Shown: positions 790 through 60,092, counted from the first letter of the stretch. The stretch: DNA of 64,000 bases from Candidatus Poribacteria bacterium (GCA_965222225.1 CBDCTK010000002.1:3072001-3136000), one strand, 5' to 3'. Notes: generated from the sequence alone by a model not told the origin. Numbers and translations are program-made.

Positions 790-1170
790 AGGGATTCCTA
801 TCGCGCTCACTATCCGTTCGTTTAATCGCTCCTAACAAGGACTTATACCTGTGAGGACTTCTATCGCACTCCCTATCCGGTCGCTTGATCCTTTTTCAGT
901 CGCTTGAACTATTCGGTCAGTTGGTCCTTATTCAGTAGCTTGAGAAGATCTCTATCGATCAAGTGAGCGAACAGCGAACGCGATAGCCCATCTTGTTCGC
1001 TATTCGGTTGCTTGATCTATCTGCCCAGTTCACTATTCGCTTGAGGGATTTGCTATCAAGACTTTCTATCGCCTTAGGCTCCCTATCGCGCTAGGATCTC
1101 TATTGGGATTAGCTATCGCGGTCGTTATTCACTCCCTTGATCCTTCGCTATCCGGTCGCGTGATCCCTTG
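790..1170. repeat. Nested cluster of ~36-nt GA-hairpin mini-elements
   Basis: Complete copies at 790-825, 853-888, 959-994 (opposite orientation) and 1105-1140, plus stacked leader (GGA..TATCGC) and tail (TATTC-nn-TC-nn-TTGA) fragments. Confidence 0.85.
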
Positions 1171-1189
1171 AGAACGAGGCAATTAAGAC

Positions 1190-1219
1190 TTGATACTCAG
1201 GTAAGCGTTGGTGTACACT
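1190..1219 (+). promoter_or_regulatory. Putative sigma70 promoter of the TA operon
   Basis: TTGATA-18 nt-TACACT upstream of RBS AAGGAG and the GTG start at 1267. Confidence 0.4.
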
Positions 1220-1266
1220 TTTCCCGTGAGTAGACTAGACTAAGTGTAGCTAATAAGGAGAAGGCG

Positions 1267-1503
1267 GTGAAAATTACCAATATTCATAAAGCCAAGACTC
1301 GATTTTCGCAGCTCATTGAGCGGGCGCAAGCTGGTGAAGAGGTTATCATCGCTAAAGCGGGGGTGCCGGTCGCCAAGCTCATTCGCTACGATGAAGGCGA
1401 CGCTCCCCGCCAGCCGGGGTTCTGGCGCGGAAAGGTGAGGATTGCGGATGATTTCGACGAATTGCCGGAAGCATTTACCACATTTTTCGAGGAGGGAAAC
1501 TAA
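1267..1503 (+). CDS. Phd/YefM-family antitoxin (VapB-like)
   Basis: NIHKAKTRFSQLIERAQAGEEVIIAKAGVPVAKL motif; stop overlaps start of PIN toxin gene. Confidence 0.9.
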   Translation: MKITNIHKAKTRFSQLIERAQAGEEVIIAKAGVPVAKLIRYDEGDAPRQPGFWRGKVRIADDFDELPEAFTTFFEEGN

Positions 1504-1888
1504 TGGTTCTTTCACTCGATACACATGTGCTGCTATGGTGGCTCGCTGATGACGCGGCGCTTTCCCAAACAGTACGTGCGGCGATTTCAGATGGAAGGAA
1601 TCTCGTGTTTGTCAGTGCCGCTGCCGCGTGGGAAATAGTGATTAAAAGCGCGCTGGGTAAGTGGGTAAGCTTGATATACCGTCTGATTTGGAAGCCGCTT
1701 TAACAGCCAATCGATTTCAACCGCTGCCGATAACGATTCCTCATGCCCTAGCCGTTGCAGATCTCCCACATCATCATAATGACCCTTTTGATCGCCTGTT
1801 AATCGCGCAGGCGAAGGTTGAAGGTTTTACACTGGTTACCGCGGATGAGCAAATCAAGAAGTATGATGTTTCCATCATGGAAGCATGA
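1503..1888 (+). pseudogene. vapC: VapC PIN-domain toxin, frameshifted by an 8-bp tandem duplication
   Basis: LDTHVLLWW...SAAAAWEIVIK and HNDPFDRLLIAQA...VTAD lie in different frames; TGGGTAAG is duplicated at 1654-1669. Confidence 0.85.
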
Positions 1889-1892
1889 GCCT

Positions 1893-2119: not shown

Positions 2120-2159
2120 GTCACTGCACAATGAAGCCGCAGTGATTTTGCTCCGCAGG

Positions 2160-2279: not shown

Positions 2280-2306
2280 GGGGGTTTTCCTTGAGATTAT
2301 GCTCGA

Positions 2307-6676: not shown

Positions 6677-6697
6677 AGACCTACCGCTGTCACACCG

Positions 6698-7970: not shown

Positions 7971-8254
7971 TGGATTTACACCTCCGTGTTAAGGATTTAC
8001 GTCTTCCATAGGAATCGATGTGATGGGTATTCGGATAGGATAACCGCATCTGATTTTAGATTCTTGGAGCGTCTTTCGTAATCGCCCTACTTTTTACAGG
8101 TCAATGCCCTTTGGTTGCCTTCTCCTTTTGGGACCAATGGCGTCATTTTTCGCAGATTAGCAGTTTCGACCCGCCTTATTGTTTACCGCAATACCAAGCC
8201 CCAGCGGGGATCAAACGAACGGATAGTGAGTGCGATAGAAATCCCACAGGTGCG

Positions 8255-8728: not shown

Positions 8729-8755
8729 AGTGGCTTTCCTTAGAGGAACCGTTTA

Positions 8756-8975
8756 CCTGTCGCCCCTCCGGGGCTTTGGTGTTTGGAGTTTCGGCGTTGC
8801 TATACACCTTCAGGATCTCTATCGCACGGGATTTACTATCGCGCTCCCTTTTCAGTCGCTTGATGGTTCAACCCAACCTACAGGGACCTACACTTGCCGT
8901 CCCGCCGGGGATTTCAAAGGCTGGTAAGAGCTCTATCGCACTCCCTATCCGGTCGCTTGATCGGTGCGCACCCTA
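8756..8975. repeat. Composite REP array carrying 36-nt mini-element insertions
   Basis: CCTGTCGCCCCTCCGGGGCT; nested element at 8828-8863; AACCCAACCTAC; CAAAGGCTGGT[element]GGTGCGCACCCTAC. Confidence 0.8.
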
Positions 8976-16746: not shown

Positions 16747-16751
16747 ATCCT

Positions 16752-16775
16752 GTAGGAGCGATCTCCAGGTCGCGA
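16752..16775 (+). repeat. GTAG-type REP upstream of RAYT
   Basis: GTAGGAGCGATCTCCAGGTCGCGA; inverted copy at 17515-17538; further copies near 24122, 25570, 37501. Confidence 0.85.
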
Positions 16776-16876: not shown

Positions 16877-17350
16877 ATGCAAGACATTCCAAACCGAGGA
16901 TACCGTCAATTGCGGAAAGGTAGACGCTCCATACCGGACACCTACTACTCCCTTACGCTTACCACAATTGACAGAAAACCGCTTCTTGCAAACGCGGAGG
17001 TTGCAGACGTTATATTCGAAGCCTTTGATTAGCTCGAAACCAATAAATGGTGCAGATGGTTTTGTCTCGTCGTAATGCCAGATCATATCCATTCCGTCAT
17101 TCAACTGGCGGGTAACAAGACCCTTTCGAGACTCATTCAATCCTTCAAAAGTTTCACAGCGAGACGGATTAACACCCACTTGGGACGCAGCGGTTCGCTC
17201 TGGCAAGCGGCTTATCATGACCACGGCATTCGGCACGACGAGTCATTGAATGCGATTATTCGATACTGTTACGAGAATCCTGTGAGGAGCGGATTGGTGA
17301 AGGAGGCGAGGGATTATCCGTATTGGCGGTCTAAATTCGAGATGGGGTGA
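16877..17350 (+). pseudogene. REP-associated tyrosine transposase (RAYT) with in-frame TAG at 17030-17032
   Basis: RQLRKGRRS..YYSLTLTT, VVMPDHIH, SFKSFTAR, WQAAYHDHGIR, YCYENPVRSGLV..YPYW; both ORF pieces are in the same frame. Confidence 0.88.
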
Positions 17351-17400
17351 GGAGGGTACAATGCCCTCTGAGCGCAATCTCCCGCCGGCTCCTTTTTCCA

Positions 17401-17538
17401 TAGGAGCGATGAAGCGAGCGGGAATTTCTATCGCCCTCGTTGTTCACTCGGTTGATCGATAGAGATCCTCTCAAGGTCGCGATTCTTTCGTTTTCCGTCG
17501 TTTTGGCCAAGGAGTCGCGACCTAGAGATCGCTCCTAC
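17401..17538. repeat. REP doublet downstream of RAYT; first REP split by nested mini-elements
   Basis: TAGGAGCGA|insert 17410-17468|TCTCAAGGTCGCGA, then TCGCGACCTAGAGATCGCTCCTAC. Confidence 0.8.
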
Positions 17539-17589
17539 AGTAGCGTATCGTGTAATCCAGCTTTTTGACTGGAACATGCAACCGCATAG

Positions 17590-18378
17590 ATGGAAACAAT
17601 GACTATGGCGTTGATAGATGAACAAAAGCGGGAATTTGACGAGAACGGTTATGTTATCGTTCGCAACCTCCTCACGCGCGAGGAAGTGCAGGCGGTCGGG
17701 GGTCGCGCCGATCAGATTGCCGTGGGCGAAATCGCGCAGCCGGTGTCTGCCGTCCAAGTTGAACCGGCAATTAAACGCAAAGAAGAGACGGCAAAATCGA
17801 AAATCGACTCTATCCGCAAGCTGAGTAGCGTGGTTCGCACAGATCCGATTATGCTCGCGCACGCGACGAATGCCAAAATTTTGGACATCTTGGAAGGCTT
17901 AATCGGTCCCGATATCAAACTATTCGACGATCAGCTATTCATGAAATCGTCCGCGCACGGATCGCGCAAGAATTATCACCAGGATTCCAATTCGAGCGTG
18001 ATGTCGCAGTATGTACCCCATAGCCTCGTGAGTTGCTGGGCGGCATTGGATGACGCGACAGTAGAAAACGGTTGTCTGTGGTTTATTCCGGGGAGTCACA
18101 AATGGGGACGCATCGCCGTTGAACGTGAGCGGGAGATTGAAAGGTGGGCGCTTGCCGGTGCGTTGGAAAACGAGGTGCCTATTGAACTGAAAGCCGGCGA
18201 TTGTAGCTTTCATCATAGCCTTTTGTTGCACTGCAGTCAAGCCAATCGTTCGACGACCCGGCGTCGGGGGTATGCCACGCAGTACATGAGTTCGAAAACG
18301 AAGTATACGGGTGAAGGCACTCCGTTTAGGTGCAATTTCCTCTTGCTGCGCGGCGAAGAATTTCCGGGATGTGTATAG
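17590..18378 (+). CDS. PhyH-family dioxygenase
   Basis: QLFMK..YHQD, ENGCLWFIPGSH, HHSLLLH. Confidence 0.9.
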   Translation: METMTMALIDEQKREFDENGYVIVRNLLTREEVQAVGGRADQIAVGEIAQPVSAVQVEPAIKRKEETAKSKIDSIRKLSSVVRTDPIMLAHATNAKILDILEGLIGPDIKLFDDQLFMKSSAHGSRKNYHQDSNSSVMSQYVPHSLVSCWAALDDATVENGCLWFIPGSHKWGRIAVEREREIERWALAGALENEVPIELKAGDCSFHHSLLLHCSQANRSTTRRRGYATQYMSSKTKYTGEGTPFRCNFLLLRGEEFPGCV

Positions 18379-18410
18379 GCGGATCGAACGGTTCGCGGGT
18401 CGGGCTAGAA

Positions 18411-18650
18411 GGGATTTCTATCGCGGTCACTATCCATTCCCTTGATCGCACGGGATTTTCTATCGCCTTCGTTAATCACTCAGTTGATCGTTATTCACTC
18501 GTTTGATTGTTCGCTTGATTTCACTCTGGGGCTTTGGTGCTTAGGGCATCGGTGCTACTATACACCTGTCGCCCTTATAGGGCTTTCAAAGGCTGGTAAG
18601 AGCTCTATCGCGCTCCCTATCCGGTCACTTGATCGCAGTGCGCACCCTAC
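18411..18650. repeat. Nested 36-nt mini-elements plus REP composite
   Basis: Inner copy 18452-18487 sits within outer copy TCGC-AC|TC-GT-TATTC-AC-TC-GT-TTGA; another copy lies inside CAAAGGCTGGT..GCAGTGCGCACCCTAC. Confidence 0.85.
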
Positions 18651-18681
18651 AACTGATACATGAAACCAAAAAAAGGAGACA

Positions 18682-19458
18682 ATGATTATGGCATTGACAG
18701 ATGAACAAAAGCAGGAATTTGACGAGAACGGTTATATTATCGTTCGCAACCTACTGACCGACGAAGAGGTACGCGCGGTCGGGGGTCGAGCCGATCAGAT
18801 TTCCGTAGGGGAAGTTGTCCCGGAGGAGGGGTTTGGCATCCAAGTTGAACCGGCAATTCAGCGCAAGGAAGAGGTTGCAGAATCGAGACTTGAATCTATC
18901 CGCAAACTCGGCGGGTTGGTCCGCAAAGATCCGGTCATGCACGCGCACGCTACTAACCCGAAGATTTTGGATGTCTTGCAAGACCTAATTGGTCCCGATA
19001 TCAAGCTGTTCGGCGATCAACTGTTTATGAAATCGTCCGCGCACGGATCGCGCAAGAACTATCACCAGGATTCCAATTCGTGGAGACCGTATGTTCCGTA
19101 TAGTCTCGTGAGTTGCTGGGCGGCACTGGACGACGCTACGGTAGAAAATGGTTGTCTGTGGTTTATTCCCGGGAGCCACAAATGGGGGCTGCTCGACGTT
19201 GAACGTGAGCGAGAGATTGAGAAGAAGGCGCTTGCGGGACCGCTGGAAAATGAGGTGCCGATTGAACTGAAAGCCGGCGATTGCAGTTTTCATCACAGCC
19301 TTACGTTGCACTGCAGCCATACAAATCGATCGAAGACCCGGCGTCGCGGGTATGCCACGCACTACATGAGCGCGAAAACGAAGTATACGGGTGAAGGTAC
19401 TCCGTCCAAGTCCAATCATCTGTTGCTGCGCGGTCAGGAATTTCCGGGGTATGTTTAG
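18682..19458 (+). CDS. PhyH-family dioxygenase (tandem paralog)
   Basis: Highly similar to 17590-18378; YHQD and distal His conserved. Confidence 0.9.
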   Translation: MIMALTDEQKQEFDENGYIIVRNLLTDEEVRAVGGRADQISVGEVVPEEGFGIQVEPAIQRKEEVAESRLESIRKLGGLVRKDPVMHAHATNPKILDVLQDLIGPDIKLFGDQLFMKSSAHGSRKNYHQDSNSWRPYVPYSLVSCWAALDDATVENGCLWFIPGSHKWGLLDVEREREIEKKALAGPLENEVPIELKAGDCSFHHSLTLHCSHTNRSKTRRRGYATHYMSAKTKYTGEGTPSKSNHLLLRGQEFPGYV

Positions 19459-19647
19459 AGTCAGGTTGAATAAGGGTGGCAAAGCCGTTTTTGGTCCTTT
19501 GAGTTGCTACATATCTTGAAGATTCTTCTGCGATTTGATGATTGCTGATTGTGCACCATAAGGAGAGGTGGGCGGTGCCCACCCTACAAAGTAAATTGAG
19601 ATCTTGAGGCGCACTTTTTACAAACTGACGTAACGAAAGGCATTCGT

Positions 19648-21066
19648 ATGAACCAAGCAATGAATTTTCCGGATCCAAATTTTCCACTTGTTCAACTACC
19701 GACGCAATTCCGCGCCCAGCGGCACACGATGGTGGATAGGCAGGTGGCGATAGGAGAAACCAAAGAGGTATTTCGGGCACAGGGTCCCGGGTGTGTGAGG
19801 CACATCTGGATTGTTCCAAATCCGATCTCGGACACCCGTTTTACCGAGGATTATATAGACAATTCCAATACCAACGCTATCATCAAAATCTACGTCGATG
19901 ACGAATCGCGGCCGTCAGTGAATATGGATCTGAAGCGGCTGTGCGGCGTGCTGCTCGATCAATCTCCGTATCGTGTCGACAACGCCGGGTTCGCAATTTT
20001 GCCCAGAAAAATGGGGTCGGTGCACGGCGACTGCTACAACATTTATTTACCAATTCCGTTCGCCAAGTCGTGCCGTATCACGATGGAGCCGTTGATGGAT
20101 CAGGTGATACGTATAATGGCGGACTGGCAACAGTTCCCCGAGGGTACGGACATCACCCCTTACCGTTTTCACGCGGTATATAGAAGTGAATACCCCGCGA
20201 GTCATCACTCATCCTTTCTCATGGCTGATTTATCGGGAAAGGGTTTTATCGCGGGTATCGTCAAAGGCATCAGACAGCGCGAGCACAGCGACATGATCTA
20301 TCATACCGGCGGGCAGGTGTGGATGATCGATGGGGAGAGCGATCCTCACGTCATGCGGGGGATCAACGAGGAGGATGATTTCGGATTCGGCTGGGGCTAT
20401 CACCCGGTGATGACACGCTGGATCGGTTGCCCGTATCACCGCTATGCGACCCGTACCGACCAGGACGGGGTTATCTACCGTTTGTTCGGCATGAATCCGG
20501 TAACGTTCGACTCCTCGCTGCTACTCCGTTGCGGGTCTCGCGCGGACGACACGGAGACCGTGGTGTACTACTACCGGGTGCCGGAAAGCCAAGCGCATCC
20601 GGTCACTTCGCCCGAATCGTGGGAAATTGCGGGGCCATTCGGATGCGGCAACTACGAGCAGTTCCTACAATCGGAAATCCCGGAGGAGGTAACTGGCGCC
20701 TGGACGGGACAGTTTCAAGAGGGCGAAGTGGAGTTCTCGGTACACTCCGCCAAAACGGAACACACATGGATTGACTTGTCAACCTACTGCCGTTCCGGCT
20801 CTCAGCGCCAATTGGATCGTTCCGCTTATGCCCGCACCACCATTGAGTCTGAGGAGGAGCGGTCAATCCAAATTCGGATCGGATTCGACGATTGGTTGAC
20901 CGTGTGGCTAAACGGTGAGAAGTTGGGAACCTTTCGCCATGACCACGGTTTCGCGGCGATTAACGTCCCCGCGCGTTTGAAGAAGGGCGCCAATAAACTG
21001 ATGGTCAAGCTCAGCAACTTTGAAAACATCACGCATGGGTGTTGGGCGATGAGTTGCTCACTATAG
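19648..21066 (+). CDS. DUF2961-family (GH172-like) protein with C-terminal beta-sandwich
   Basis: GPGCVRHIW, IKIYVDDE, YNIYLPIPFAKSCRI, FHAVYR, G..EDDFGFGW; C-terminal FDDWLTVWLNG...LKKGANKLMVK. Confidence 0.7.
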   Translation: MNQAMNFPDPNFPLVQLPTQFRAQRHTMVDRQVAIGETKEVFRAQGPGCVRHIWIVPNPISDTRFTEDYIDNSNTNAIIKIYVDDESRPSVNMDLKRLCGVLLDQSPYRVDNAGFAILPRKMGSVHGDCYNIYLPIPFAKSCRITMEPLMDQVIRIMADWQQFPEGTDITPYRFHAVYRSEYPASHHSSFLMADLSGKGFIAGIVKGIRQREHSDMIYHTGGQVWMIDGESDPHVMRGINEEDDFGFGWGYHPVMTRWIGCPYHRYATRTDQDGVIYRLFGMNPVTFDSSLLLRCGSRADDTETVVYYYRVPESQAHPVTSPESWEIAGPFGCGNYEQFLQSEIPEEVTGAWTGQFQEGEVEFSVHSAKTEHTWIDLSTYCRSGSQRQLDRSAYARTTIESEEERSIQIRIGFDDWLTVWLNGEKLGTFRHDHGFAAINVPARLKKGANKLMVKLSNFENITHGCWAMSCSL

Positions 21067-21247
21067 TCATTGCAACTAAGAATTACACATGTGTTTATAA
21101 CATACCCAATTTCCCACCCATTCCCATTGAGCGGGTCGGGCTTCCAGCCCGACCCGCTCAATGGGAAACGTTGCAAACCAGGAGATTGTGAGCTACGTCG
21201 AGCCAATCAACGCTCATATGTGTAAATATAAATGCAAATGACTATAG
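21061..21247. mobile_element. MITE with terminal inverted repeats and an internal perfect hairpin
   Basis: CTATAGTCATTGCAACTAAGAATTACACAT ... ATGTGTAAATATAAATGCAAATGACTATAG; internal TTCCCATTGAGCGGGTCGGGCT-tcc-AGCCCGACCCGCTCAATGGGAA. Confidence 0.7.
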
Positions 21248-21316
21248 AGAACCTGGATTAGGTTTTGTTGACATTTTTCCGAGGCGTGTCTGTAATTCGC
21301 CCAGAAATACCTAATT

Positions 21317-21343
21317 GTAGGGGCGAGGTGACCTCGCCCCTAC
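21317..21343. repeat. GTAG-type palindromic REP
   Basis: GTAGGGGCGAGGTGACCTCGCCCCTAC. Confidence 0.75.
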
Positions 21344-21481
21344 AATATAGGGTCACGTAACGCGCCGGAATCTTGCAATTATCCCAAATCGCCTCAAGGC
21401 GCATATGGAGATAGGTTCAGTTTGTCAAATGTCAACAGAACTTAGGCATTCTGTAAAGAGAAGGATTAGACAGAGCAAGCT

Positions 21482-22336
21482 ATGGGAACAAGATTGGAAG
21501 GCAAAGTAGCTATCATTACCGGTGCAACGCTGGGACTCGGGAAAGCGGCGGCATTGCTGTTCGCCAGAGAGGGCGCTTCGGTTGCCGTCTGCGACCGGGG
21601 TCGAACACCGGAAAACGCCCAAAAGCTGCTTGATGCGGCGGTAGGGCTCCCCGGCGAAATCGCCTACAAGAAGTGCGATGTCATGGATAAGGATGACATC
21701 GCCGCGCTTGTGGAATTCACTCAGGCGCGGTACGGGAGGATTGACGTGATGGTGAACAACGCCATTATCGACAATCCCGGCGGGAGGCTGGAGGATGTCA
21801 CGGTTGAAGATTGGGAAGACGGGTTGTTCTGTCATTTGAGGGCACCGCTAGTTTTCTGTAAGGCGGTGGTGCCGCTGATGATTGAGCAGGGCGGCGGGAG
21901 CATTATCAATGTCTCATCGGGCAATGCGCTGTTCGGAAGTCCCAGTATCTCATCGTACGGTCCAGCCAAGGCGGGCATGATTAACTTCACGAAGAGTTTA
22001 GCGGTTACCTACGGACCTTACGGGATTCGCGCCAACGCGCTGACGCCCGCGCGAATGCTGACTGAGAAAAAACTCGAAATGCTTGAAGGCAATCCGGCAG
22101 AGGTCAGAAGACAGAAATTTCTCTATCCGCGGGGCAATCCGGCGCAGCCGGAGGAGGTGGCGGAGGTCATGCTGTTCTTGGCTTCGGATGAGTCGTCCGC
22201 CGTCACCGGGCACAGCTTGGTTGCGGATTGCGGGGCGTCGGCGTTCAATCCGCTGAGTATTCCGGGGCGACTGGAACGGAATATCCGAGAGGAGTTGGAA
22301 GCGCAAGGCTCGGAATGGCTGCATGGCGAGAAGTAA
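21482..22336 (+). CDS. Short-chain dehydrogenase/reductase
   Basis: TGATLGLG, VNNA, YGPAK, IRANALTP. Confidence 0.92.
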   Translation: MGTRLEGKVAIITGATLGLGKAAALLFAREGASVAVCDRGRTPENAQKLLDAAVGLPGEIAYKKCDVMDKDDIAALVEFTQARYGRIDVMVNNAIIDNPGGRLEDVTVEDWEDGLFCHLRAPLVFCKAVVPLMIEQGGGSIINVSSGNALFGSPSISSYGPAKAGMINFTKSLAVTYGPYGIRANALTPARMLTEKKLEMLEGNPAEVRRQKFLYPRGNPAQPEEVAEVMLFLASDESSAVTGHSLVADCGASAFNPLSIPGRLERNIREELEAQGSEWLHGEK

Positions 22337-22441
22337 ATATCAATCGAGCGAGTGAATAACGACCGATCAAAGGAAGGATCAAGGAAGCGAATAGCGAGCG
22401 CGATAGTGATCCACTTGCCACTGTGTCTAGGGAGGATTTCT

Positions 22442-23077
22442 GTGGAATATATTCCTATATTTCAACTATTTCAACCTTATGAGTTTGGCGAGAGGGAGAA
22501 AGCTTCGCTGGACAGAGACGGACCCTTTCTCCTGCCCGGCATTCTGACGCCGGGGGCTTGCGAGCGGTTGACGGCGTCGCTGTCGCACATTGAAGACCTG
22601 ATGCCCTCCGCCGTCAAAGGGCAAGAGCCTAGCAGCTTTGCCGCGGAGTACGACTCCTATCTGGAGAGCCTCATCCTGCATCCACAGATGTGTGATTTAG
22701 TACGCGGAATTCTGGGTGAAGAGATTCGATTTGACCACTGCGTGACGCTCAACCGCCCGGGCGGAAACGGGGGTTTGCATTGGCACAGCCACGAATACGC
22801 GGATGATGATCCGAGCTTAGGTTTTTTGCGCATCTTCTTCTACGTCAACGGGTTTGAGGCTGGCGACGGCGGCTTGAAAGCCGTGCCGGGCAGCGTCGTC
22901 TTGATGTGGACGCACGCCGCGCACGCGGTCAGTCCGAGACGCGCGAGCAGCGATATGCGATGGACGGTGGTGTACGCCTACCGAAATCCGGGCAGCCCCA
23001 CTCTGGCGCGTTGGCTTACGCCGGAATTTGAACAAAAGCAGATTCACGGCGCCAAGCGTCTCATGAACCTATATTGA
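22442..23077 (+). CDS. PhyH-family dioxygenase with a 44-aa in-frame deletion (possibly inactive)
   Basis: GTG start after GGAGG; WHSH; AVPGS joins VVLMWTH directly, unlike paralog 23259-24017. Confidence 0.75.
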   Translation: MEYIPIFQLFQPYEFGEREKASLDRDGPFLLPGILTPGACERLTASLSHIEDLMPSAVKGQEPSSFAAEYDSYLESLILHPQMCDLVRGILGEEIRFDHCVTLNRPGGNGGLHWHSHEYADDDPSLGFLRIFFYVNGFEAGDGGLKAVPGSVVLMWTHAAHAVSPRRASSDMRWTVVYAYRNPGSPTLARWLTPEFEQKQIHGAKRLMNLY

Positions 23078-23258
23078 GTCATGTAGGTTGAGTTGAACAG
23101 AAACCGCATAGTTCATCGGTAGAATCGATACTGCCTCTTTCTAAGTGAATGAGAAAGCGAGATAGCAACGGTGAAACCCAACTCTCAAGCCGGTCGCGTG
23201 TAACGCTTTGCTGACCACTAATCACTAGCCACTGGTCACTGATTTTCAGAGGATTCCC

Positions 23259-24017
23259 GTGGAACATATCCCCATATTTCTACCTTACGAGTTTGGCGAG
23301 AAAGAGAAAGCCCTATTGGACAAAGACGGGCACTTTCTCCTGCCCGGCATCCTGACGCCGCAGGCTTGTGAGCGACTGAAGGCGTCGTTGTCGCACATTC
23401 AAGACTTGACCCCGTCCGCTGTCGAAGGTCACAAGCCCAACCATTTTGCGGCGGAATACGACTCCTATCTGGAGGGCCTCCTCTCGCATCCGCAGATGCT
23501 CGACTTGGCGCGGAGAATTCTCGGTGAGGAGATCCGATTTGACCACTGTGTGACGCTCAACCGCCCGGGCGGCAACCGAGGCTCGCATTGGCACAGTCAT
23601 GAATACGCGGATGACAACCCTAGCTTGGGTTTTGTTCGCATCTTCTTCTACGTCAACGGTTTTGAGGTTGATGATGGCGGCTTGGAAGCGGTGCCGGGCA
23701 GCCACCACTACCGGGACGCAAAAATCAAGGCAGAAACGGACGAGGCGCTAAAGACGGGATGGATGGCGGGAAAGACGCACCCCTTGACGGGGGAACCGTT
23801 GGAGATACAGGATTTGACCGCTCCGGCGAGAACAGTCGTCTTGATGTGGACACACGCCGCGCACGCAGTCAGTCCGAGACGCGCATGCAGCGATACGCGA
23901 TGGACCGTGGTATACGGTTACCGAAATCCGGGCTGCCCATCGGCTCCGCGTTGGATTACCCCGGAATTTGAAGCGAAACGGATTCCCGGCGCCGAGGGGT
24001 TGATGGGCCTCTATTGA
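23259..24017 (+). CDS. PhyH-family dioxygenase
   Basis: HWHSHE, GGLEAVPGSH, WTHAAHAV. Confidence 0.8.
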   Translation: MEHIPIFLPYEFGEKEKALLDKDGHFLLPGILTPQACERLKASLSHIQDLTPSAVEGHKPNHFAAEYDSYLEGLLSHPQMLDLARRILGEEIRFDHCVTLNRPGGNRGSHWHSHEYADDNPSLGFVRIFFYVNGFEVDDGGLEAVPGSHHYRDAKIKAETDEALKTGWMAGKTHPLTGEPLEIQDLTAPARTVVLMWTHAAHAVSPRRACSDTRWTVVYGYRNPGCPSAPRWITPEFEAKRIPGAEGLMGLY

Positions 24018-24341
24018 GCCATGTAGGTTGGGTTGAACAAGAAATATCATATAAAAGCAAATAGCGTGCTATTTCTCAAGTAAACTGGCGTGCGAGACAG
24101 TAATAGTGAAACCCAACACTGTAGGAGCGATCTCCGAATCGCGACCTTTTAGAAATCAGTGCTGTAGGGAGGAATCAGCGATTAAGCGAGTGAACAACGA
24201 GGAATAAAGCGACTGGTCAAGGAGCAGGATTTTCTATCGCCTTCCTTATCCAGTCAGTTAATCGCTCACTATCCGCTCGCTTGATCCCAACCTACGGGCT
24301 ATTCACCCCATAGCCCTAATACCAATCAGGAGTGATTTTCA

Positions 24342-25490: not shown

Positions 25491-25762
25491 TCGCGGATGT
25501 GTGGATTCGTAGTCAGGACCAGCAAGCAGAGGAGGGAAACTGGGGATTTGACTATCGCAACCATCCTCTGTAGGAGCGACCTCCCGGTCGCGATTATCCT
25601 TTTGTGGATACCTTGATGTCCAGTTTCGCGAGCAGGAGAAGTTCTCTATCGCACTCGCTATGCGCTCGCTCGATCTCCTACAGAAGACGTGCAGTAACGG
25701 AATTTCTATCGAATCTCTATGGGAGTTCTATCGCGTTCCCTATCCGGTCACTTGATCCCAGA

Positions 25763-25791
25763 TTTACATTTCCCGCGAGATTTGCTATAAT
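25763..25791 (+). promoter_or_regulatory. Sigma70-like promoter
   Basis: TTTACA-17 nt-TATAAT with extended -10 TG, upstream of GGAGG and ATG 25850. Confidence 0.7.
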
Positions 25792-25849
25792 CCGTTTGAA
25801 AGCAGTAAAGACTACTACGTATTTCAACGCAACCGGGAGGAGCACTCAT

Positions 25850-28348: not shown

Positions 28349-28665
28349 GGATTCGCAGAAGCGGGAATTGGTGATTTGATAATTGAAGATTGCATGCTAG
28401 CGCTCCCAAAGGCTGGTGAGATCTCTATCGCGGTCGTTATTCACTTCCTTAATCGCAGTGCGCACCCTACAGGAATTGTATCGCAGAGGGAGGGAATAAA
28501 CCGCCCTACCACAGTGCCTCTAGTAGGTTGGCTTGAACGATCTCGCTCGATCCTTGCCAGAGCGCCATCTTGGATCGTCCTAGCTAAAACAAACCTTTCA
28601 ACACCAAACAAGAGGTAGCGGTTAGACGGAGTGTTTTAGGGTACATATTGCACGGAGTCCTCGGT

Positions 28666-31349: not shown

Positions 31350-31452
31350 TGAGCCCTAGAGCGCAACAAAGCGGCGGCACTTTATATAATTTTCGAAGAA
31401 GCGGCCGGTGGGCAGTAAGAGGGGAAATCGACGATGTGACAATCTCACCCCC

Positions 31453-31747
31453 ATAGAGATCAAGTTAAGCGTTTTAGGGTGCAAGTCACGCGGTTTCAAT
31501 GTCTTAAACCGTTAATCTCCATGTAGACTTGGGCGAGGGGATACCAATTCATTCATTGATGGGTCCGCCACAGAAGATGACTCATGGCGCTCGTTTCCGT
31601 AGGGGGCGGGGCTGGGTGCGGTTGGAAACCGCACCTACCGTATGAGGTGCGATAGAGATTTCTCCCCGCCCAATGCGGACTAAGTAAAGGGGCTTGCGTC
31701 GGAGAACCCCACCAATACTTGACGAACTCCCTTAACTCGATCCCTAT
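31453..31747. mobile_element. MITE-like element with inverted ends, flanked by a 20-bp direct repeat
   Basis: ATAGAGATCAAGTTAAG ... CTTAACTCGATCCCTAT; CGATGTGACAATCTCACCCC at 31432 and 31749; internal GTAG REP. Confidence 0.55.
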
Positions 31748-31857
31748 GCGATGTGACAATCTCACCCCTACCTATTCCTAGCCGCTTTGGGCGGGGGTTG
31801 CGATAGGTGTATAGCATAACCAGAATGTTACTCAGAAGATTAAAGGAGGCAGGGTTT

Positions 31858-33360: not shown

Positions 33361-33585
33361 ACCCCTGCGATGTGCAGAATCTGACGCTTCCTACTGTGGG
33401 CGGGAATCAAGCGAGTGAAAAGCGAGCGCGATAGAAATCCTGTCTTGCCCCGCCATGCGCATACGATCACGCTCGGACAATCGCTCGCTTAATCTATCCG
33501 CACGGCTGATCGATGGAAATTCTATAAAACTTCCCAAGATATAACGCATCTACCTATGTGCAATTGCTCCCGGAAATAAAGTCAA

Positions 33586-36733: not shown

Positions 36734-36856
36734 TTGTCTCAACTAGGAGGGGATGGGTACGAGAGAACGGAGCGGGATAAAGGGAGATCAAACAAGCGGA
36801 TAGCGAGCAAGATTTTCTATCGCCCTCCCTGTCCGGTCGGTTGATCCTCGCCGCTA

Positions 36857-37315: not shown

Positions 37316-37620
37316 CTGATGCTCCTTCGGTAGTGGCGGTCACAAAATCTATGTTGTTTTCGCGGCTAACTATCCTGATTCGTTGTCGGCGATTCTACTA
37401 TCTTTCGAGATTATGGTCAATAGAAAACGGAATTCCACGACCCAAGCACCAGTTTTTGTAGGGTGCGCATGGCGCACCAGCCTTTCGCTCTTGGTTTCTT
37501 GTAGGAGCGAGTTGTACTCGCGATTCCTCTCTAGGTGCAATCTCCTGGTCGCGAGCTGGAGAGAGAGATCTATCGCCCTCACTATTCGTTCGGTTGATCG
37601 CTCCTACATGCTCACGGGAA

Positions 37621-39092: not shown

Positions 39093-39237
39093 GGGGATCT
39101 CTATCGATCAACTGAGATCAAGCGAATGAATAGTGAGCGCGATAGAGATCTTATAGCGAAGGCGATAGCAAATCCTGCTCACTATCCCTTAATCCCACGC
39201 CGGGGCCTCAAAGGCTGGTGGGCAGTGCCCACCCTAC
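39093..39237. repeat. Triple-nested mini-elements adjoining REPs
   Basis: Minus copy 39118-39153 inside another minus copy, inside a split plus copy; followed by CAAAGGCTGGTGGGCAGTGCCCACCCTAC. Confidence 0.75.
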
Positions 39238-44149: not shown

Positions 44150-44340
44150 GCTATGTACCTGTCGCCCCGCTGGGGCTTAGGTGCGTGAGGTATCGGCGTT
44201 CTATACACCTGTCGCCCCTCTAGGGCTATTAGAAGTTGGTGGAATTCTATGGGGACTTTATCGCGTAGGATTTACTAACGGGATTTGCTATCGCGCTCAT
44301 TATGCATTCGCTTGATCCCTCGTTATTCACTCCGTTGATA
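44150..44340. repeat. REP doublet followed by stacked/nested mini-elements
   Basis: Several leaders (GGAATTCTAT, GGGGACTTTATCGC, GGATTTACTA), a complete copy at 44280-44315, then a tail. Confidence 0.75.
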
Positions 44341-44352: not shown

Positions 44353-45945
44353 TCAATTCTCAGGCGGGAGGAGGCGAAAGCTGTAGAGTTTTGCGCCTTT
44401 CAGACGAAAGCGAAGGCGGCACGGTTGTTCCGCTTGATTCAAGCCGCGGTCCCCCCAGCGAACAGAATGGCGCACGTGGTCACCCCGTATAGGCGTGCAG
44501 GTTTCCGCCGAGAATCCGGGCTGCACCTGCCCGTCAGGGGACAGCACCTCGACGGCAAGGCTGCCGCCGCTCGCGTCGACGTTCACTTCGAACCTGCCAT
44601 CTGGCAGTTGCAGGGGAACGGTTTCAACCACGCCGTCATCCGCATCGAGCGAGACAAAGCCGTCCAACCGCCAACTGGCTCTACCGATGGACATCACTTT
44701 GTCCTTGAGCAGCTCGCCGTGCGTCTGCGTGCTGCCGGTGTAGTACCAGTGTATCCCGTCATCCTCCACCAAGGGTTCTTTGGCGGTGAAGAGAATCATG
44801 CCCGAATCGAATTCGCCTCCCTTCCCGCGCGGGAGAATCGGGGTTCGGTCTTCAAAATGGCGCCAGTTTACGCCGTCTCGGCTGTAGATGAGTTGCGCAT
44901 CAATCGGACCATCGACGGCTGCCTGCCCGGGCACGGTATTCACGATGTCCTCGGTGACGTATAAGACGCCCAAGAGACCGATATAGATGCTGGGGATCTC
45001 TATCGCACGAGAATTTCTATCGCCCTCGCTATTCACTCGGTTGATCCCTATTCGGTCGTTTGGTCGATAGGGAAAGCCGGACATGTTGTGAAACTCCGCG
45101 CGGATAGCGCCGTAGCGCTCCTTGCCGAGCGCGTCGTCTTCCGGATTTGGTTCCAGGATGGGCGTTATCTCCGACCACCCGCTTTCCAATCTCTTGCTCT
45201 CGCTGTATTCGATGTGACGACGCTCCCCTCCCCTCCCGACCAGCATATAAGAGAGGTAGCGGTCAGCCCTTTCATCGCATACCACATTCGTAGGTCCCTC
45301 ATTTGCGCGCTCTATCACCGGCTGTTTCAATCCCTCATCGCTCCAACGGATGCCGTCGGGCGACGTAATTAGGAAGATGTTCCGGTAGCGGCGGCAAAAA
45401 CCGATCGCTTTGTAACGCTCCCTTTCGTCCCGCGGGTCATCCTCAAGAAAAACGCTGGCGCCGTGCAAGTCCCAAACGATGTTGTTATTCGGGCTTTCGT
45501 CAAAATCGAATATCCCCAGATTCGGTTTGGTCCACGTCAGCCCATCATCGCTCTCGGCATAGCAGAGCAGGTCGCCGATGTCGCTGCCCCGGAAATGCCT
45601 TCCGTCATCGTCGGTGCGGCGTCCCATGTACCGGGTAGCGTCTCCAGCGCCGGTGCGGGGCACATATAAGCCGGGAATGCGGTGTCCGTGATCCGGATCC
45701 ATGCGAGCCATATACCACATCTGGAATTTGTTCGTCCGATTGTCGTGCAGCACGGTTCCCAAGAGATTGACCCGCTTGGTTCTCTCGGGACCGTCATTTT
45801 CCCACGGCTTGTCGGGTTCCGGTGCTATGACCGGATGCGGTGTTTTGGTCGCCGGATGGAGCGTGCGGGTGACGCCGCGCTTCGTCTCAATGAGTGCATC
45901 GTCTACAAATAATTCTGTGCCGTAACCGAGTTCGTGTGGTTTCAT
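44353..45945 (-). CDS. Beta-propeller glycoside hydrolase-like protein carrying a 24-aa in-frame mini-element insertion
   Basis: ELFVDD, YAESDDGLTWTKP, YSRDGVNW, LRFRLKGAKLYSF; insert PNDRIGINRVNSEGDRNSRAIEIP between FPYR and SIYIG. Confidence 0.82.
   Translation of the reverse strand: MKPHELGYGTELFVDDALIETKRGVTRTLHPATKTPHPVIAPEPDKPWENDGPERTKRVNLLGTVLHDNRTNKFQMWYMARMDPDHGHRIPGLYVPRTGAGDATRYMGRRTDDDGRHFRGSDIGDLLCYAESDDGLTWTKPNLGIFDFDESPNNNIVWDLHGASVFLEDDPRDERERYKAIGFCRRYRNIFLITSPDGIRWSDEGLKQPVIERANEGPTNVVCDERADRYLSYMLVGRGGERRHIEYSESKRLESGWSEITPILEPNPEDDALGKERYGAIRAEFHNMSGFPYRPNDRIGINRVNSEGDRNSRAIEIPSIYIGLLGVLYVTEDIVNTVPGQAAVDGPIDAQLIYSRDGVNWRHFEDRTPILPRGKGGEFDSGMILFTAKEPLVEDDGIHWYYTGSTQTHGELLKDKVMSIGRASWRLDGFVSLDADDGVVETVPLQLPDGRFEVNVDASGGSLAVEVLSPDGQVQPGFSAETCTPIRGDHVRHSVRWGDRGLNQAEQPCRLRFRLKGAKLYSFRLLPPEN
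44992..45063. mobile_element. Two nested 36-nt mini-elements inside a CDS
   Basis: Inner 45009-45044; outer 44992-45008 + 45045-45063; removal restores FPYRSIYIG. Confidence 0.9.
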
Positions 45946-49886: not shown

Positions 49887-50997
49887 TTCGTGTCTCCTTA
49901 TCAAGCAGAGGGCTTGTGAACTTGGTAAGGTCTTGTTTCAGCAGTTAGCAACCTGACAAAACACGAACAAGCTACTGGCTGGCACTGAGAATCCTGTGTA
50001 CATTCGTGGAGGTGCATTCACAGGGTGCATCGGGTAAAACGGAGACCCATTTTATCCCTTTTTCGCCGTTTCGTCAACAATAATCCCCCGTTTCTTCGGC
50101 TTCGTCGTTGACCTGATTCTGTGCTTCGTCAAAGCAAGATATAGCGAAGTGAGCCGCATAGGGCGGGTCCTCGCTCTTCCTCAATTATCGTGGGAATGTG
50201 GCCCCGGTTACAGAGCGCACAACGTTACGGGTAGGTCGCACTATTGCGCGTTGCTCTGACCCGTTTGCGACATTGGCCACTTTTGGACTCACGGCGATGA
50301 GTATTCGGATGCCGTAGGTAAGAAGCGAAGGAAGTCTGTATTCGGTGTAATCCCGATGGCTTCGTCGCCGCGCCACGTGATACGGAAATCAATGCCGTTG
50401 GTACATTCGTCAACCGTCTGAACCGGGAGATCGTACAGAATTTAGATATGCCCAAGCGGATCTGGCGCCGACACAATCAGGAAGGGGCGGATCCACAACA
50501 GGTTGTGCGGCCGACCATGCACCGTACTCTTCAGGCAATAGCCGCTACTGTCCCACCCACTACGGGTAACGTATAGCACATCCTGGATAAAACGTCTTGA
50601 GTGGTTTTATTGCTAAAAACATATGGTATAGGACTTACGCGTTTTTGACTCTTGAAGCGAATGCAATTTTCGGAAGAAATCGAGTTTTCAAGAAAAAAGG
50701 GGACGCTATAACAGTCATTATCCATTCCCTTAATCGGTTTCGAGGCACAAGTCCCATAAGCATTATCTACTTAAAGAGTATGCCACTTAGATTGCTTACC
50801 TTGACCCGCAGTGTAGTTTTCACTCACAGGCGTATCTGATAGCGCCCCTACCTAGGCAACGCTAGACAGGGAAACGAATCCTTGGTTCGCGAGCTTGTAA
50901 ATCTCTTGATTCCTGTTTCAGTAGTCAACGACTTGGCAGAATTTGAATAACTCACGCGCCCGCTCCGAAAAACCCTCGTATGTTTTAGGTGGTACTT

Positions 50998-57015: not shown

Positions 57016-57154
57016 GATGTTCCTCCTCTTTCACACAAGTTTTTTATTCGGCGAACAGCGGTTGACGGTTAGGGAATGCCTGCACTCCCTCCGCTAGCGA
57101 GTACAAACACGACACATCGTGTTTCTAATGCTGGCCTTTCAGGTTTGAAGGGGA

Positions 57155-57904
57155 TCAAAGGAGCCCAGGGGCCAGCTCTCGCATCTGATTTATCCAGCGT
57201 TGGCGTTTTGGATGAGCTTCGGAATTCGCAACCCAAGGTGTGTAGTCAATCTCATTAAGGACAAGCCGTTCCCGGGTAGCTTCTTTCGCTTCTGGCGTCT
57301 TGGGATTGTTGTAGTAAACCATGACACACATGCGACGGTCGTTCGAGCCTCCGCAACTGGCATGCCAGCAGCGGAGGTCGAAGGCAACTACATCGCCCGG
57401 CTCGGATTTGCACACGTAGGCCGGCACGTCGGGGATGCTCAACTCGGACTTGTCCAGATTCCGCCGCAGCTCATCGTGAAGAGGCTGCTTATGCGACCCT
57501 GGAATCACCCGAAGCGCGCCGCTTTCTGCACCAATCGGTTCCAGATAGTATGCGAATTTTACACCGTACTGATTCTGCACACTTCCCGTATCGGGATGCC
57601 AGCCCGTGTCCCCAACATAACGGTTGATATCAGAAGCAATTCCGAAGACGTCTTCGCCGTAGAGCTGCTCGGCTACTCCACAGAATCGCGAGTCTTCCAG
57701 CAACGAGGTGAAGAAGGGAGTCTGTGGTCCCATTGTCACCAGCCAATGCCGACGCGTTCCATCGAACGGGTCATCCTGAAACGCAGCTTCCATCGTTTCC
57801 ATGAACTCAACGTTGATGGTTTCGAGTTCGTCTGGACTAAACAAACTCCGTAAGGTCACGAATCCGAAGGTTTGAAAGTGAATGAATTGCTGTTCCGTGA
57901 GCAT
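57155..57904 (-). CDS. PhyH-family dioxygenase (tandem paralog)
   Basis: Highly similar to 56221-57015. Confidence 0.88.
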   Translation of the reverse strand: MLTEQQFIHFQTFGFVTLRSLFSPDELETINVEFMETMEAAFQDDPFDGTRRHWLVTMGPQTPFFTSLLEDSRFCGVAEQLYGEDVFGIASDINRYVGDTGWHPDTGSVQNQYGVKFAYYLEPIGAESGALRVIPGSHKQPLHDELRRNLDKSELSIPDVPAYVCKSEPGDVVAFDLRCWHASCGGSNDRRMCVMVYYNNPKTPEAKEATRERLVLNEIDYTPWVANSEAHPKRQRWINQMRELAPGLL

Positions 57905-58514
57905 GATGTTCCCCCTTATCCACAGAATTGCCCGAGCCTATTTACACCACAGAATCCCGGTAGGCATTGCAATTCTCTTTTCTAAAAATCTGGTCTTGAC
58001 AAGATCATAAGTACCAAGACATGATTAAATCAATATTTGGACTTCCGAAGTCTTGGCGTGCGCCTATAAAAATGATCGTGTCCATGTACCGCAAGTATTC
58101 CAATATGACGGCAGGAGACCAATACTGGATGAACGATTGGTTATATATTACTATACTGTGAAACGATTTATCAAGAGAAATTAGTTAATCGGCGGTTACA
58201 CTACCGGATCACAGTCCGGCTAGCGTTGCAATCAATTGTTCGCTGCATCATTGAATAGCAGGGCGATATGCGGCTTTGGAAAAGTCTTGAAAAGTGTTAC
58301 GGTAATATATCAAGCCTAAATTGATCTCGATTTCGAACTTGCCTCCGGTATATTGGATATGGGCCAATCTGTGCCCCAGGTCAATTCATACTAGCCCCGG
58401 GGGGCGAATTCAGTGATAGAAAGAGTTTAGGGCATATTGACCTTTCGTCCCTGCCCACTTTCTTCCGTGCTCCTTTATTAAGTTTTGAAAGGCAGAAATT
58501 ACTCATTACGCTTT

Positions 58515-59690
58515 CTAACCCCAACTAGCAATAAAGTCTTCGACATCGAAATTGGATGGCATCTCGTAAAAACAGTATTTCATCGGGCCCGACTGAAAGC
58601 CGGGAACATACTGCTCTGTATCTAATTGCAGTTTTGCATCCAGCGGTACAAATCGGGCCCAGAGTGCTTCGAGTTCTTCAGAAGAGAAGTATTGGGCAAT
58701 TTGCTTATATCTTTTCAGATCGCCTCCATAACTTGTTGGTTCAAATCGCATCTTGTATGCTAATTTGGATAACAGTATGACGCACACGATACGTCTGTTC
58801 TCACCGGGATGGAGCGCAGCGAGTCCGACGCGGAAAGCGTCAGCGTCCTTGTTGATGATTGCTTTGAACACTGATACAACGCAATGACACTCTTGGTGGA
58901 ACACCGTTTCAAACCGTTCAAACATCTTCCGTATCGAAAGTGAGAGGTGTTTGGTGAAGTCTAAATCCCAATAGAAATGCGGAACATGGGGATAAACCAA
59001 TCCACCAAAGGGGCGGTAGCCCAAGTGAATCGTTCGCCGTAACTTCGTATTATAGTTGCTGCCCCAGTGGAGGATGGTATTCGTATAGGCAACACCATCG
59101 CCCGCTTTCAATTCTACCGGGACACTATTCGGTAGTGGCAGCTTCGGATCTTCTAGCAGTTGACGATCTTCCGGTCCAGTATTGGGACGACGATGGCTAC
59201 CCGGAACCACCCAAAGCACATCATCATCGTAAAGCGGGATGTTCCACTGTATCAGTCCCGGAGCATTTTCTAGCAGGTCCATCTGCAAGCCGGTCAAGGG
59301 CGCCTGATCAATGGGATGTATATCACGGTGCCAGTTTGCCGGACCATGATCGCGCACGGGGCTACACATCAAGAACAGCGCCGTAACTGCTGCGTCGGAG
59401 GCACACATTAGTTGGCGGCTAACGCCCATTGTATTTTGGTGCAAGCAAAACTCGACAGTGTTGTCGGTGGTTTCATCAACGACGGTATCGAACCACAACC
59501 GTGGTTGAGCGGAGGTTTCCCATACGCCGCCCGGCGGGTCATCAGGATTGCGCTCACGCTCCCAAATTGCCTTCTGTCGTTCAACAAGCACTTCAAAGCT
59601 ATATCGCAGCGGGTTTAATTGTTCCGGCGGGACACACTCCCGTATAATCAGATAGCCATCGTCAATTAATTGTCCACGATTGACTTTCAT
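58515..59690 (-). CDS. PhyH-family dioxygenase with C-terminal extension
   Basis: DGYLIIR, WHRD, LWVVPGSH, LKAGDG..LHWGS..RRT. Confidence 0.85.
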   Translation of the reverse strand: MKVNRGQLIDDGYLIIRECVPPEQLNPLRYSFEVLVERQKAIWERERNPDDPPGGVWETSAQPRLWFDTVVDETTDNTVEFCLHQNTMGVSRQLMCASDAAVTALFLMCSPVRDHGPANWHRDIHPIDQAPLTGLQMDLLENAPGLIQWNIPLYDDDVLWVVPGSHRRPNTGPEDRQLLEDPKLPLPNSVPVELKAGDGVAYTNTILHWGSNYNTKLRRTIHLGYRPFGGLVYPHVPHFYWDLDFTKHLSLSIRKMFERFETVFHQECHCVVSVFKAIINKDADAFRVGLAALHPGENRRIVCVILLSKLAYKMRFEPTSYGGDLKRYKQIAQYFSSEELEALWARFVPLDAKLQLDTEQYVPGFQSGPMKYCFYEMPSNFDVEDFIASWG

Positions 59691-59964
59691 GGTTGGTTCC
59701 TTTCGTTAACCGTAATGTCGCTGTCCAGTTCTTCCCCATTCCACTAAATCTGTTTCGCGGACACTGACTTCCAGCTTGCTCCACCCGGTAAAGCTCCGGA
59801 GCAGGCCAGACTCAAAGGCCGTTCCAAACCAAGGTTCAGGGGTCGACAGGTAGAACGCAAAAGCACCTAATGAGGTGTGGATGCTTAAGAACCTGTTTGA
59901 ATAATCGGTGGCAAAGCCATTTTTGGTCATTTGTAGAAAGTTTTTTCATGTTTTCATTGTTGGC

Positions 59965-60092
59965 TGCTACATACCTGTGGGATCCCTATCGCACTCGTTA
60001 TCCACTCGCTTGATCGCTGCTGGCGCTTTCAAAGGCTGGTGCGCAGGGGATCTCTATCGCAGTCATTATTCATTCCTTTGATCGCACCCTAC
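59965..60092. repeat. Two REPs, each interrupted by a mini-element
   Basis: ATACCTG|59978-60013|TCGC.. and CAAAGGCTGGTGCGCAG|element|CGCACCCTAC. Confidence 0.8.

Follow-up and report, generated by a model that had tools for sequence, protein, structure and literature searches.

A 35-nucleotide hairpin mini-element with compensatory stem variation in Poribacteria, probably mobile as single-stranded DNA

The 64-kb stretch of DNA analysed here (the window; C2:3072001-3136000 of G000, a 5.70-Mb Candidatus Poribacteria metagenome-assembled genome in two contigs) belongs to a sponge-symbiont Poribacteria lineage. Scattered along it are copies of a very small hairpin repeat, termed here the mini-element, in company with a Y1/HUH transposase gene, with repetitive extragenic palindromic (REP) sequences, and with a second hairpin repeat, the P hairpin (Table 1). 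A preliminary description of the window had recognised more than 20 copies built on a fixed skeleton that includes TATCGC and spaces four variable dinucleotides (n1 to n4). Its search pattern returns 24 strict matches from 799 to 60081, 19 on the plus and 5 on the minus strand, and none of 100 dinucleotide-preserving shuffles of the window gave any match. The combinations of n1 to n4 quoted there are correct (TATCGC cores at 1114, 17429, 18461, 24235, 25729, 36818, 37571, 44289 and 60055), and the copies singled out for A.C mismatches are real (cores at 862, 18419, 45018 and 59987). When extended to the whole genome, the pattern finds 834 strict copies, and 1073 if up to three skeleton substitutions are allowed, against 0 in a reversed-sequence control.

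On strand F, the complement of the TATCGC strand and the strand that folds, the consensus is 5'-ATCAA-nn-GA-nn-GRATA-nn-GA-nn-GCGATAGARATCC-3'. The conserved block begins 8 nt upstream of TATCGC and extends to about 30 nt past the first base of that hexamer, and the conserved unit is about 35 nt long, slightly shorter than the roughly 36 nt first estimated. Approximately 20 of the 35 positions are nearly invariant. The suggestion that the element is selected on structure and not on sequence therefore stands in its first half, as the compensatory stems attest, but not in its second, because so strongly conserved a skeleton implies selection on both. Covariation and intergenic position, described below, bear out the view that this is a non-coding element of very small size whose stems vary in a compensatory manner; the mini-element is real, and is among the smallest mobile DNAs known. 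No prior description of it was found in Rfam or in the literature searched. The covariance models of Rfam 15 gave no match at gathering score across the whole window, and none at E <=10 on window positions 700-1300, a stretch with at least four copies, so that no described family matching the consensus emerged. Searches of the Poribacteria literature on structured RNAs, on repetitive extragenic palindromic sequences and on transposase-linked hairpin repeats turned up no description of it; Poribacteria are unmentioned in the main text of PMC5737381, and likeness to any motif there was judged from the Rfam searches.

Pairing of n1 with n4 and of n2 with n3 had been proposed from the window, and is borne out genome-wide. 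Across every pair of columns from -12 to +38, the four predicted base pairs took the four highest values of mutual information (1.24, 1.09, 0.83 and 0.46 bits), the next value within the element being 0.25. In an alignment of 62 distinct copies, drawn from the window and from four congeners, pairing holds in 97.0% of cells, a proportion that falls to 21-48% when the partner is slid by 1-3 columns, and double-sided changes number 93 cells against 21.6 in shuffles, with 0 of 500 shuffles reaching 93. The ATC/GAT step below the stem is invariant in the same alignment except for five changes from C:G to U:G, so its pairing is neither supported nor refuted by covariation. Mismatches also identify the folded strand. 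Genome-wide, A.C accounts for 10-13% of cells on the TATCGC strand and G.T for 0.8-7.5%, and the wobble-tolerant strand is therefore the complement, F, on which the frequent mismatch reads as G.T, in agreement with the earlier proposal.

Each pair is confined to two or three of the four Watson-Crick types. The outer pair occurs as C:G, G:C, G:T and A:T, with T:A absent, the second as C:G, T:A and G:C, the pair 3' of the first GA as G:C, A:T and C:G, and the loop-closing pair only as C:G, T:A and T:G. Because of these restricted alphabets, A hardly ever stands 5' of either GA and T hardly ever 3' of it; the context Y-GA-R is found in about three quarters of the copies. Such a context favours sheared tandem G.A pairs, and we infer sheared G.A pairing in the hairpin of the mini-element. 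The stems have not assorted freely. Of the 523 strictest copies, 304 are Watson-Crick at every pair, and these display 33 of 54 Watson-Crick stem combinations in proportions that depart widely from independence; certain combinations are strongly enriched (53 copies where 7.7 would be expected). Amplification from many source lineages would give non-independent stem variants of this kind.

The supposition that the mini-element behaves as mobile DNA is supported by paralogous empty sites, which were used because orthologous comparison with the congeners was unclean. Orthologous filled and empty sites had to be set aside, since the congeners are too diverged and alignments between their intergenic regions are poor; at window position 33407, for instance, the additional segment is about 72 nt long with an imperfect 15-nt duplication, and is not a clean unit. 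For 36 copies, the two flanks also exist joined directly to each other, 3-55 times elsewhere in the genome; these empty sites lack a piece of 34-37 nt, in most cases 35 or 36. The best family, TGCGCACTGCG^ATCAA...GATCC^CACCAGCCTTT, has a 35-nt insert with unambiguous ends in 6 filled sites, and its empty 22-mer occurs 36 times. No target duplication was found at any of the 36 resolved sites. The insertion point on F lies directly 3' of ..WGCG or ..CGA. Of 1006 flanks 5' of F, 904 carry G at -1, 874 carry S at -2 and 779 carry W at -4. The targets are repeats themselves, namely a GGTGCGCAGTGCGCACC palindrome, a GTAG REP, the P hairpin and other mini-element copies, the last giving rise to nesting; 36-nt tandem arrays and 23-nt sub-unit repeats are also present. 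Congener genes are 82-94% identical, yet only a minority of mini-element sites are common to these genomes, and most of the 11 copies at 17-37 kb of the window have no same-place, same-strand partner in each of the four congeners. Whole-unit filled and empty paralogs, the lack of duplication, nesting, and turnover between congeners make it likely that this is a mobile single-strand hairpin element.

By crude gene calls based on open reading frames, about 79% of the genome is coding, and 1008 of the 1073 copies fall wholly between genes. Copy density per kb is similar whether the gaps are convergent (139 copies in 134 kb), divergent (175 in 233 kb) or co-directional (726 in 797 kb), and F is sense to co-directional neighbours in 401 cases and antisense in 325, a weak association. 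Orientation agrees with regional GC skew in 68% of cases at 100 kb, and the agreement persists within each gene-direction class; of 1020 copies, 696 have F on the C-rich strand (p = 7e-32), and dnaA, at 2.61 Mb, sits at the cumulative-skew minimum. The composition of the mini-element is not the cause of this link, because it would bias the skew in the opposite direction. The same bias is seen in this genome for the GTAG strand of the ordinary REP family (101 of 160) and for the P-hairpin strand (47 of 77, and 53 of 73 for the motif next to the P hairpin). Orientation follows replication, not transcription, and a replication-linked strand bias fits the single-strand DNA mechanism put forward at the outset. 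Neighbouring copies less than 100 bp apart have the same orientation in 178 cases and opposite orientations in 31. As a separate observation, the GC skew of contig C2 changes sign about eight times along the chromosome though dnaA is at the global cumulative minimum, a pattern that suggests several large inversions or unequal replichores.

Among 151 Poribacteria genomes scanned, high copy numbers are restricted to two genera. All 9 genomes of g1, the genus of the window and inclusive of its genome, carry 604-1309 copies each, a separate count over a set of ten g1 genomes having given 610-1316, and all 4 genomes of g4, a genus of another family, carry 207-216 each; in family f2 no copy was found in 100 genomes. 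In a scan of all species-representative genomes, 80 of 80 among the matches listed were Poribacteria. Two further genomes, G133 and G010, were rejected as hosts: the 21 copies in G133 lie on contigs C72, C83, C91 and C116 and the few copies in G010 mostly on small contigs, and clustering on so few contigs makes mis-binning likely. The element-bearing contigs of both genomes have a copy density typical of genus g1.

Five Y1_Tnp loci are present in the genome of the window, one of them within the window. The product of this gene, P0001, matches PF01797 at 83.7 bits and passes the NCBIfam IS200/IS605 model (65.8 bits, cut-off 55) but falls below the cut-off of the RAYT model (30.6 vs 80); its closest solved relatives are ISDra2-type transposases, at E of about 1e-5. 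Its sequence motifs fit Y1 subclass 1.2, for which the entry in Quentin et al. (2018, PMC6006769) gives the HuH motif DH[IV]H, W motif WQ, Y motif Y---Q--HH and a length of about 148 aa, and describes low-copy genes of Cyanobacteria and Bacteroidetes with 'no' under REP. Mini-element copies lie on both sides of P0001: upstream, F shares the strand of the gene, and downstream it is on the other strand, the same polarity as that of the gene's own flanking hairpins. These are inward-facing P hairpins, AA-GCCCC-nnn-GGGGC-GAMAGGT, with a 5-bp stem and a 3-nt loop, and the family has about 77 copies in the genome. The downstream mini-element copy sits inside the P hairpin in G000, G001 and G005, and the hairpin is intact in G002. 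The subclass-1.2 gene is a candidate for the mover because mini-element copies share polarity and strand bias with P hairpins, because they insert into P hairpins, and because there is a weak likeness next to the stem (AA before, GCGAYAG after). A comparison of the mini-element tail (GCGATAGNAA) with the sequence downstream of the P hairpin (GCGACAGG.., ..TATAGNAAC) gives two alignments with about 6 of 10 matches each, a weak lead.

The reading that we prefer, at a probability of roughly 0.55, is that the mini-element is a non-autonomous hairpin element akin to REPs, active as single-stranded DNA and mobilised in trans, with a Y1/HUH enzyme as the most likely mover; it is a good deal more doubtful that this is the subclass-1.2 enzyme, which is the best candidate but a weak one. 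A Y1/HUH mover was also hinted at in the preliminary description, and the Y1 gene of the window is indeed bracketed by copies, but that argument falters across genomes, where the conserved flanks of the gene are a different hairpin and the gene also occurs in element-free genera. The evidence that weighs against our reading is of several kinds. A P hairpin is found on at least one side of 34 of 42 Poribacteria subclass-1.2 loci, and on both sides of 26 of the 42 (the L056-L101 set; counts for the wrong polarity, taken as controls, were 2 and 4), and relatives of the gene in Acidobacteriota and Verrucomicrobiota have it beside them as well. Subclass-1.2 genes are present in 7 of 7 cases in g6 and 5 of 10 in g3, both element-free genera, and a 400-kb sample of the g6 genome G018 contained 36 P hairpins and no tandem-GA hairpin family, so the idea of a variant element in g6 was dropped for that sample. 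Conversely, a subclass-1.2 gene is missing from two g4 genomes that carry about 215 copies each. Co-transfer of the gene with the element was rejected, since a tree of 33 subclass-1.2 proteins does not join g1 and g4; in this tree G015 groups with a g6 gene (support 99/90) and the position of G012 is unresolved. Class-2 RAYTs were likewise rejected as the cognate enzymes, because their full-length relatives in 7 congeners have GTAG REPs of their own and no mini-element copy within 400 nt. With respect to structure, the unit has one hairpin in place of two ends and lacks GTAG; with DNA parameters all four pairs appear in only 26 of 834 minimum-energy F folds, and the mean DNA nearest-neighbour energy is -1.3 kcal/mol against -1.7 for shuffles, so a bare DNA hairpin is marginal, and G.A stability beyond the parameter set, or a protein, would be needed. 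G.U wobble and a better fold as RNA would suit an RNA equally. Finally, the active strand of IS608 is the one on the lagging-strand template, and the orientation of the mini-element is the opposite.

Other Y1 genes stand in a similar relation to the element. G015 has a different Y1 gene flanked by inverted mini-element copies, with no counterpart among the five loci of G000, and in G000 a C-terminal remnant of a class-2 RAYT (YIKNNP; C2:3560268-3560543) is tightly bracketed by inverted copies, the upstream one of which interrupts that RAYT's own REP. The window holds a class-2 RAYT-like gene too, at 16880-17350 on the plus strand (DHIH, YCYENP), with an in-frame TAG and with inverted GTAG REPs (GTAGGAGCGATCTC...) at 16752-16765 and 17525-17538; it is probably a decaying REPtron.

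Table 1. Mini-element copies and associated features in the window. Strand is that of the folded strand F for copies, and a copy unit is 35 nt.
Feature	Position	Strand	Basis or remark
Mini-element copy	792..826	-	Pattern match, alignment
Mini-element copy	855..889	-	Followed by partial half-modules (TATYC-nn-TC-nn-TTGA) at 880-945
Mini-element copy	958..992	+	Pattern match, alignment
Degenerate copy	988..1016	-	4 skeleton substitutions
Mini-element copy	1107..1141	-	Pattern match, alignment
Mini-element copy	8210..8244	+	Inserted in the hairpin repeat immediately 3' of the Y1 gene, CACCTGT[unit]CCCGCTGGGGC
Y1/HUH transposase gene P0001, 157 aa	8255..8728	-	DHIH, WQ, YIKNQEAHH, fitting subclass 1.2; candidate mobiliser
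P hairpin (AAGCCCCGGAGGGGCGACAGGT)	8755..8776	-	Directly upstream of the Y1 gene; conserved cognate flank of the gene family
Mini-element copy	8830..8864	-	Truncated copy before it at 8807-8822
Mini-element copy	8927..8961	-	Inserted in AAAGGCTGGT^CGGTGCGCACC repeat
Mini-element copy	17422..17456	-	Pattern match, alignment
Mini-element copy	18412..18446	-	Same-place, same-strand copy in G005 with different inner stem, still pairing
Mini-element copy	18454..18488	-	Pattern match, alignment
Mini-element copy	18599..18633	-	Pattern match, alignment
Mini-element copy	22378..22412	+	Pattern match, alignment
Mini-element copy	24228..24262	-	Pattern match, alignment
Mini-element copy	25640..25674	-	2 skeleton substitutions
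Mini-element copy	25722..25756	-	Pattern match, alignment
Mini-element copy	28419..28453	-	Pattern match, alignment
Mini-element copy	33406..33440	+	Segment absent at this place in congeners G005 and G003
Mini-element copy	36811..36845	-	Pattern match, alignment
Mini-element copy	37564..37598	-	Pattern match, alignment
Mini-element copy	39117..39151	+	Pattern match, alignment
Mini-element copy	44282..44316	-	Degenerate neighbour at 44311-44339
Mini-element copy	45011..45045	-	Pattern match, alignment
Degenerate copy	50706..50734	-	3 skeleton substitutions
Mini-element copy	59980..60014	-	Pattern match, alignment
Mini-element copy	60048..60082	-	Pattern match, alignment

Two other repeats of the window deserve mention. 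A GTAG REP (GTAGGGGCGAGGTGACCTCGCCCCTAC) occupies 21316-21343, where 37 nt are missing from the contigs of two runs in another study; the skipped segment in the RNA-run contigs, 21296-21334, was considered as a mini-element and rejected, as it corresponds to the REP, which seems to be polymorphic between strains. A repeat of about 300 bp at approximately 31449-31749 exists in dozens of copies, with 76-94% identity in congeners G001, G005 and G009.

In its working the mini-element is like a REP or like the end of an IS200/IS605 element, yet it fails the defining features of both. As with the REP, BIME and REPIN sequences associated with RAYTs in Enterobacteria and Pseudomonas, its copies are short, intergenic, imperfect hairpins, non-coding and strand-specific, that number in the hundreds and fall into sub-families; the genome likewise has Y1 genes flanked by inverted hairpin repeats, and the strand bias runs in the same direction as that of its GTAG REPs. 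REPs, in the definition used in PMC6006769, have a conserved 5' GT[AG]G tetranucleotide beside the hairpin, whereas the mini-element has no GTAG on either strand of the unit, F starting with ATCAA after a ..WGSG flank. Its stem is only 2+2 bp around tandem G.A, its close neighbours are mostly direct and therefore not REPIN doublets, and its insertion as a whole unit into other repeats is directly visible. Inverted copies do flank P0001 and the Y1 gene of G015, but the conserved flanks of P0001 are P hairpins. Insertion of IS200/IS605 elements occurs 3' of a fixed tetra- or pentanucleotide and without target duplication. The mini-element shares with these elements (IS608, ISDra2) and their gene-less derivatives insertion 3' of a short fixed sequence with no duplication, and one active strand bearing a hairpin. 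Differences lie in the single hairpin per unit, where the IS200/IS605 outline in PMC6006769 has subterminal hairpins at both ends, in the length of 35 nt as opposed to hundreds of nucleotides, and in an orientation to replication that is reversed relative to that of IS608. From miniature inverted-repeat transposable elements (MITEs) it is set apart by the lack of target-site duplication and by unit ends (ATCAA.. and ..ATCC) that are not inverted copies. It thus has no GTAG, no REPIN doublets, no terminal inverted repeats and no duplication; the preliminary description had called its copy-to-copy compensatory diversity unusual for a REP or MITE family.

The closest systems in behaviour appear, on this comparison, to be the small dispersed repeats (SDRs) of cyanobacteria, of which SDR1-8 of the Nostocaceae were reportedly described by Elhai and colleagues in 2008 as small mobile hairpin repeats with compensatory changes. 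A hairpin kept by compensatory changes, insertion into other repeats and self-nesting are common to both. In the account of them in PMC5861425, SDRs are 21-27 nt and unknown outside Nostocaceae, whereas the mini-element is 34-37 nt and was met only in Poribacteria in the searches made, a distinction drawn from descriptions of the SDRs. Integron attC sites are also folded single-strand DNA sites with structure placed over sequence and with non-Watson-Crick features. They are longer, however, lie in gene-cassette arrays and need an integron integrase; no cassette arrangement by mini-element copies was noticed, in an analysis that did not include a search for integrases.

We infer that DNA rather than RNA is the working molecule, and the mechanism that we propose is as follows. 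The working form would be a single-stranded hairpin on strand F, in which two 2-bp Watson-Crick or wobble steps flank the tandem G.A, a G..A-closed loop sits on top, and the fixed ATC/GAT step possibly extends the stem below, with an 8-nt tail after it. The unit enters whole and strand-specifically, 3' of ..WGCG or ..CGA and with no duplication, other hairpin repeats and its own copies being common landing sites. It would travel in single-stranded form, processed by an HUH/Y1 enzyme that recognises both the fixed bases and the shape, and any copy that still folds, G.T included, could serve as a source. Because any folding copy could seed new ones, the stems may have diversified into many sub-families via G.T intermediates, while the bases that are read would stay fixed. 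The more specific version, in which subclass-1.2 Y1/HUH enzymes move the substrate in trans and read it through the tandem G.A, the G..A-closed loop and the short tail, leaving the four pairs free, is tentative at best. The orientation of the copies may be read as loss, if copies with F on the lagging-strand template were excised more often.

The most serious alternative, though an unlikely one, is that the mini-element is mobile but is moved by another enzyme or by a host process, such as an unrecognised nuclease and ligase, a recombinase that recognises folded single strands in the manner of integron integrases at attC sites, or template switching at replication forks. That no Y1 gene co-varies with the element across genomes would then be expected, and the tandem 36-nt and 23-nt sub-unit arrays could come from slippage. 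The folded strand is, moreover, on the leading-strand template, and the recombining strand of attC sites in chromosomal integrons tends toward that template as well. Insertion 3' of a short fixed target without duplication is, however, a hallmark of Y1 single-strand transposition, the strand bias agrees in direction with that of the GTAG REPs in the same genome, and cassette-like gene arrays beside the copies, as would suit an integrase, were not noticed, with the limit on that search given above.

It is improbable that the mini-element works as an RNA, either as a structured motif with a host function or as an element mobile via an RNA intermediate, as has been proposed for cyanobacterial SDRs. 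The wobble asymmetry and the slight excess of sense over antisense copies are in its favour, as is folding with RNA parameters, under which the minimum-energy structure has all four pairs in 626 of 834 F strands and in 145 of 834 complements, far above the count with DNA parameters; yet the energy, -4.5 against -3.9 for shuffles, is not better than theirs in this comparison. A single weak match to a reverse transcriptase (RVT_1, 27.5 bits) was found in a 679-aa open frame at C2:4500547-4501089 of G000. Against an RNA stand the far closer tracking of replication than of transcription, the equal density in divergent gaps, where promoters lie, and in convergent ones, and the absence of any Rfam match even at the permissive threshold; nor were promoter or terminator features noticed, though no search aimed at them was made. 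Contigs from three metatranscriptome runs and one DNA run cover copies at 17300-26000 of the window and break at repeats, but such coverage is uninformative on transcription because the contigs have no strand or ends and the libraries may hold DNA.

At least as improbable is a host-selected site held in place, whether for a nucleoid, replication or repair protein or as a barrier to mRNA decay, a role suggested for REPs. A near-invariant skeleton and an orientation linked to replication would be compatible with such a site, and the one same-place pair between species (the copy at 18412 and that of G005) differs by changes that preserve pairing. Most sites, however, are not common to the congeners, the element is missing from most Poribacteria genera, including all the family-f2 genomes scanned, and neither whole-unit filled and empty paralogs with self-nesting nor sub-family amplification is expected of a site held in place, although a host role may exist on top of mobility. 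DNA-uptake or polar (KOPS-like) sequences were dismissed, as those are not covarying hairpins confined to intergenic DNA.

At 34-37 nt, the mini-element is among the smallest DNA units visibly inserting as a whole. Since each genome holds about 1000 copies and the compensatory stem variants run to dozens, it amounts to a natural mutational map of what the mobilising machinery reads, one that sets the fixed G.A steps, loop and tail against the four free pairs. If a subclass-1.2 enzyme does move it, enzyme and element would add to IS200/IS605 and RAYT-REP a third type of partnership between Y1 proteins and repeats, and would offer a simple in vitro system for that uncharacterised subclass, in which a 35-nt mobile DNA could be reconstituted from one small protein and one oligonucleotide. 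REP-like systems that lack the GTAG tag, and have stems too short for palindrome finders, may be missed in other genomes. For the annotation of Poribacteria, the mini-element accounts for a large part of the repeats between genes and for many of the breaks in assemblies.

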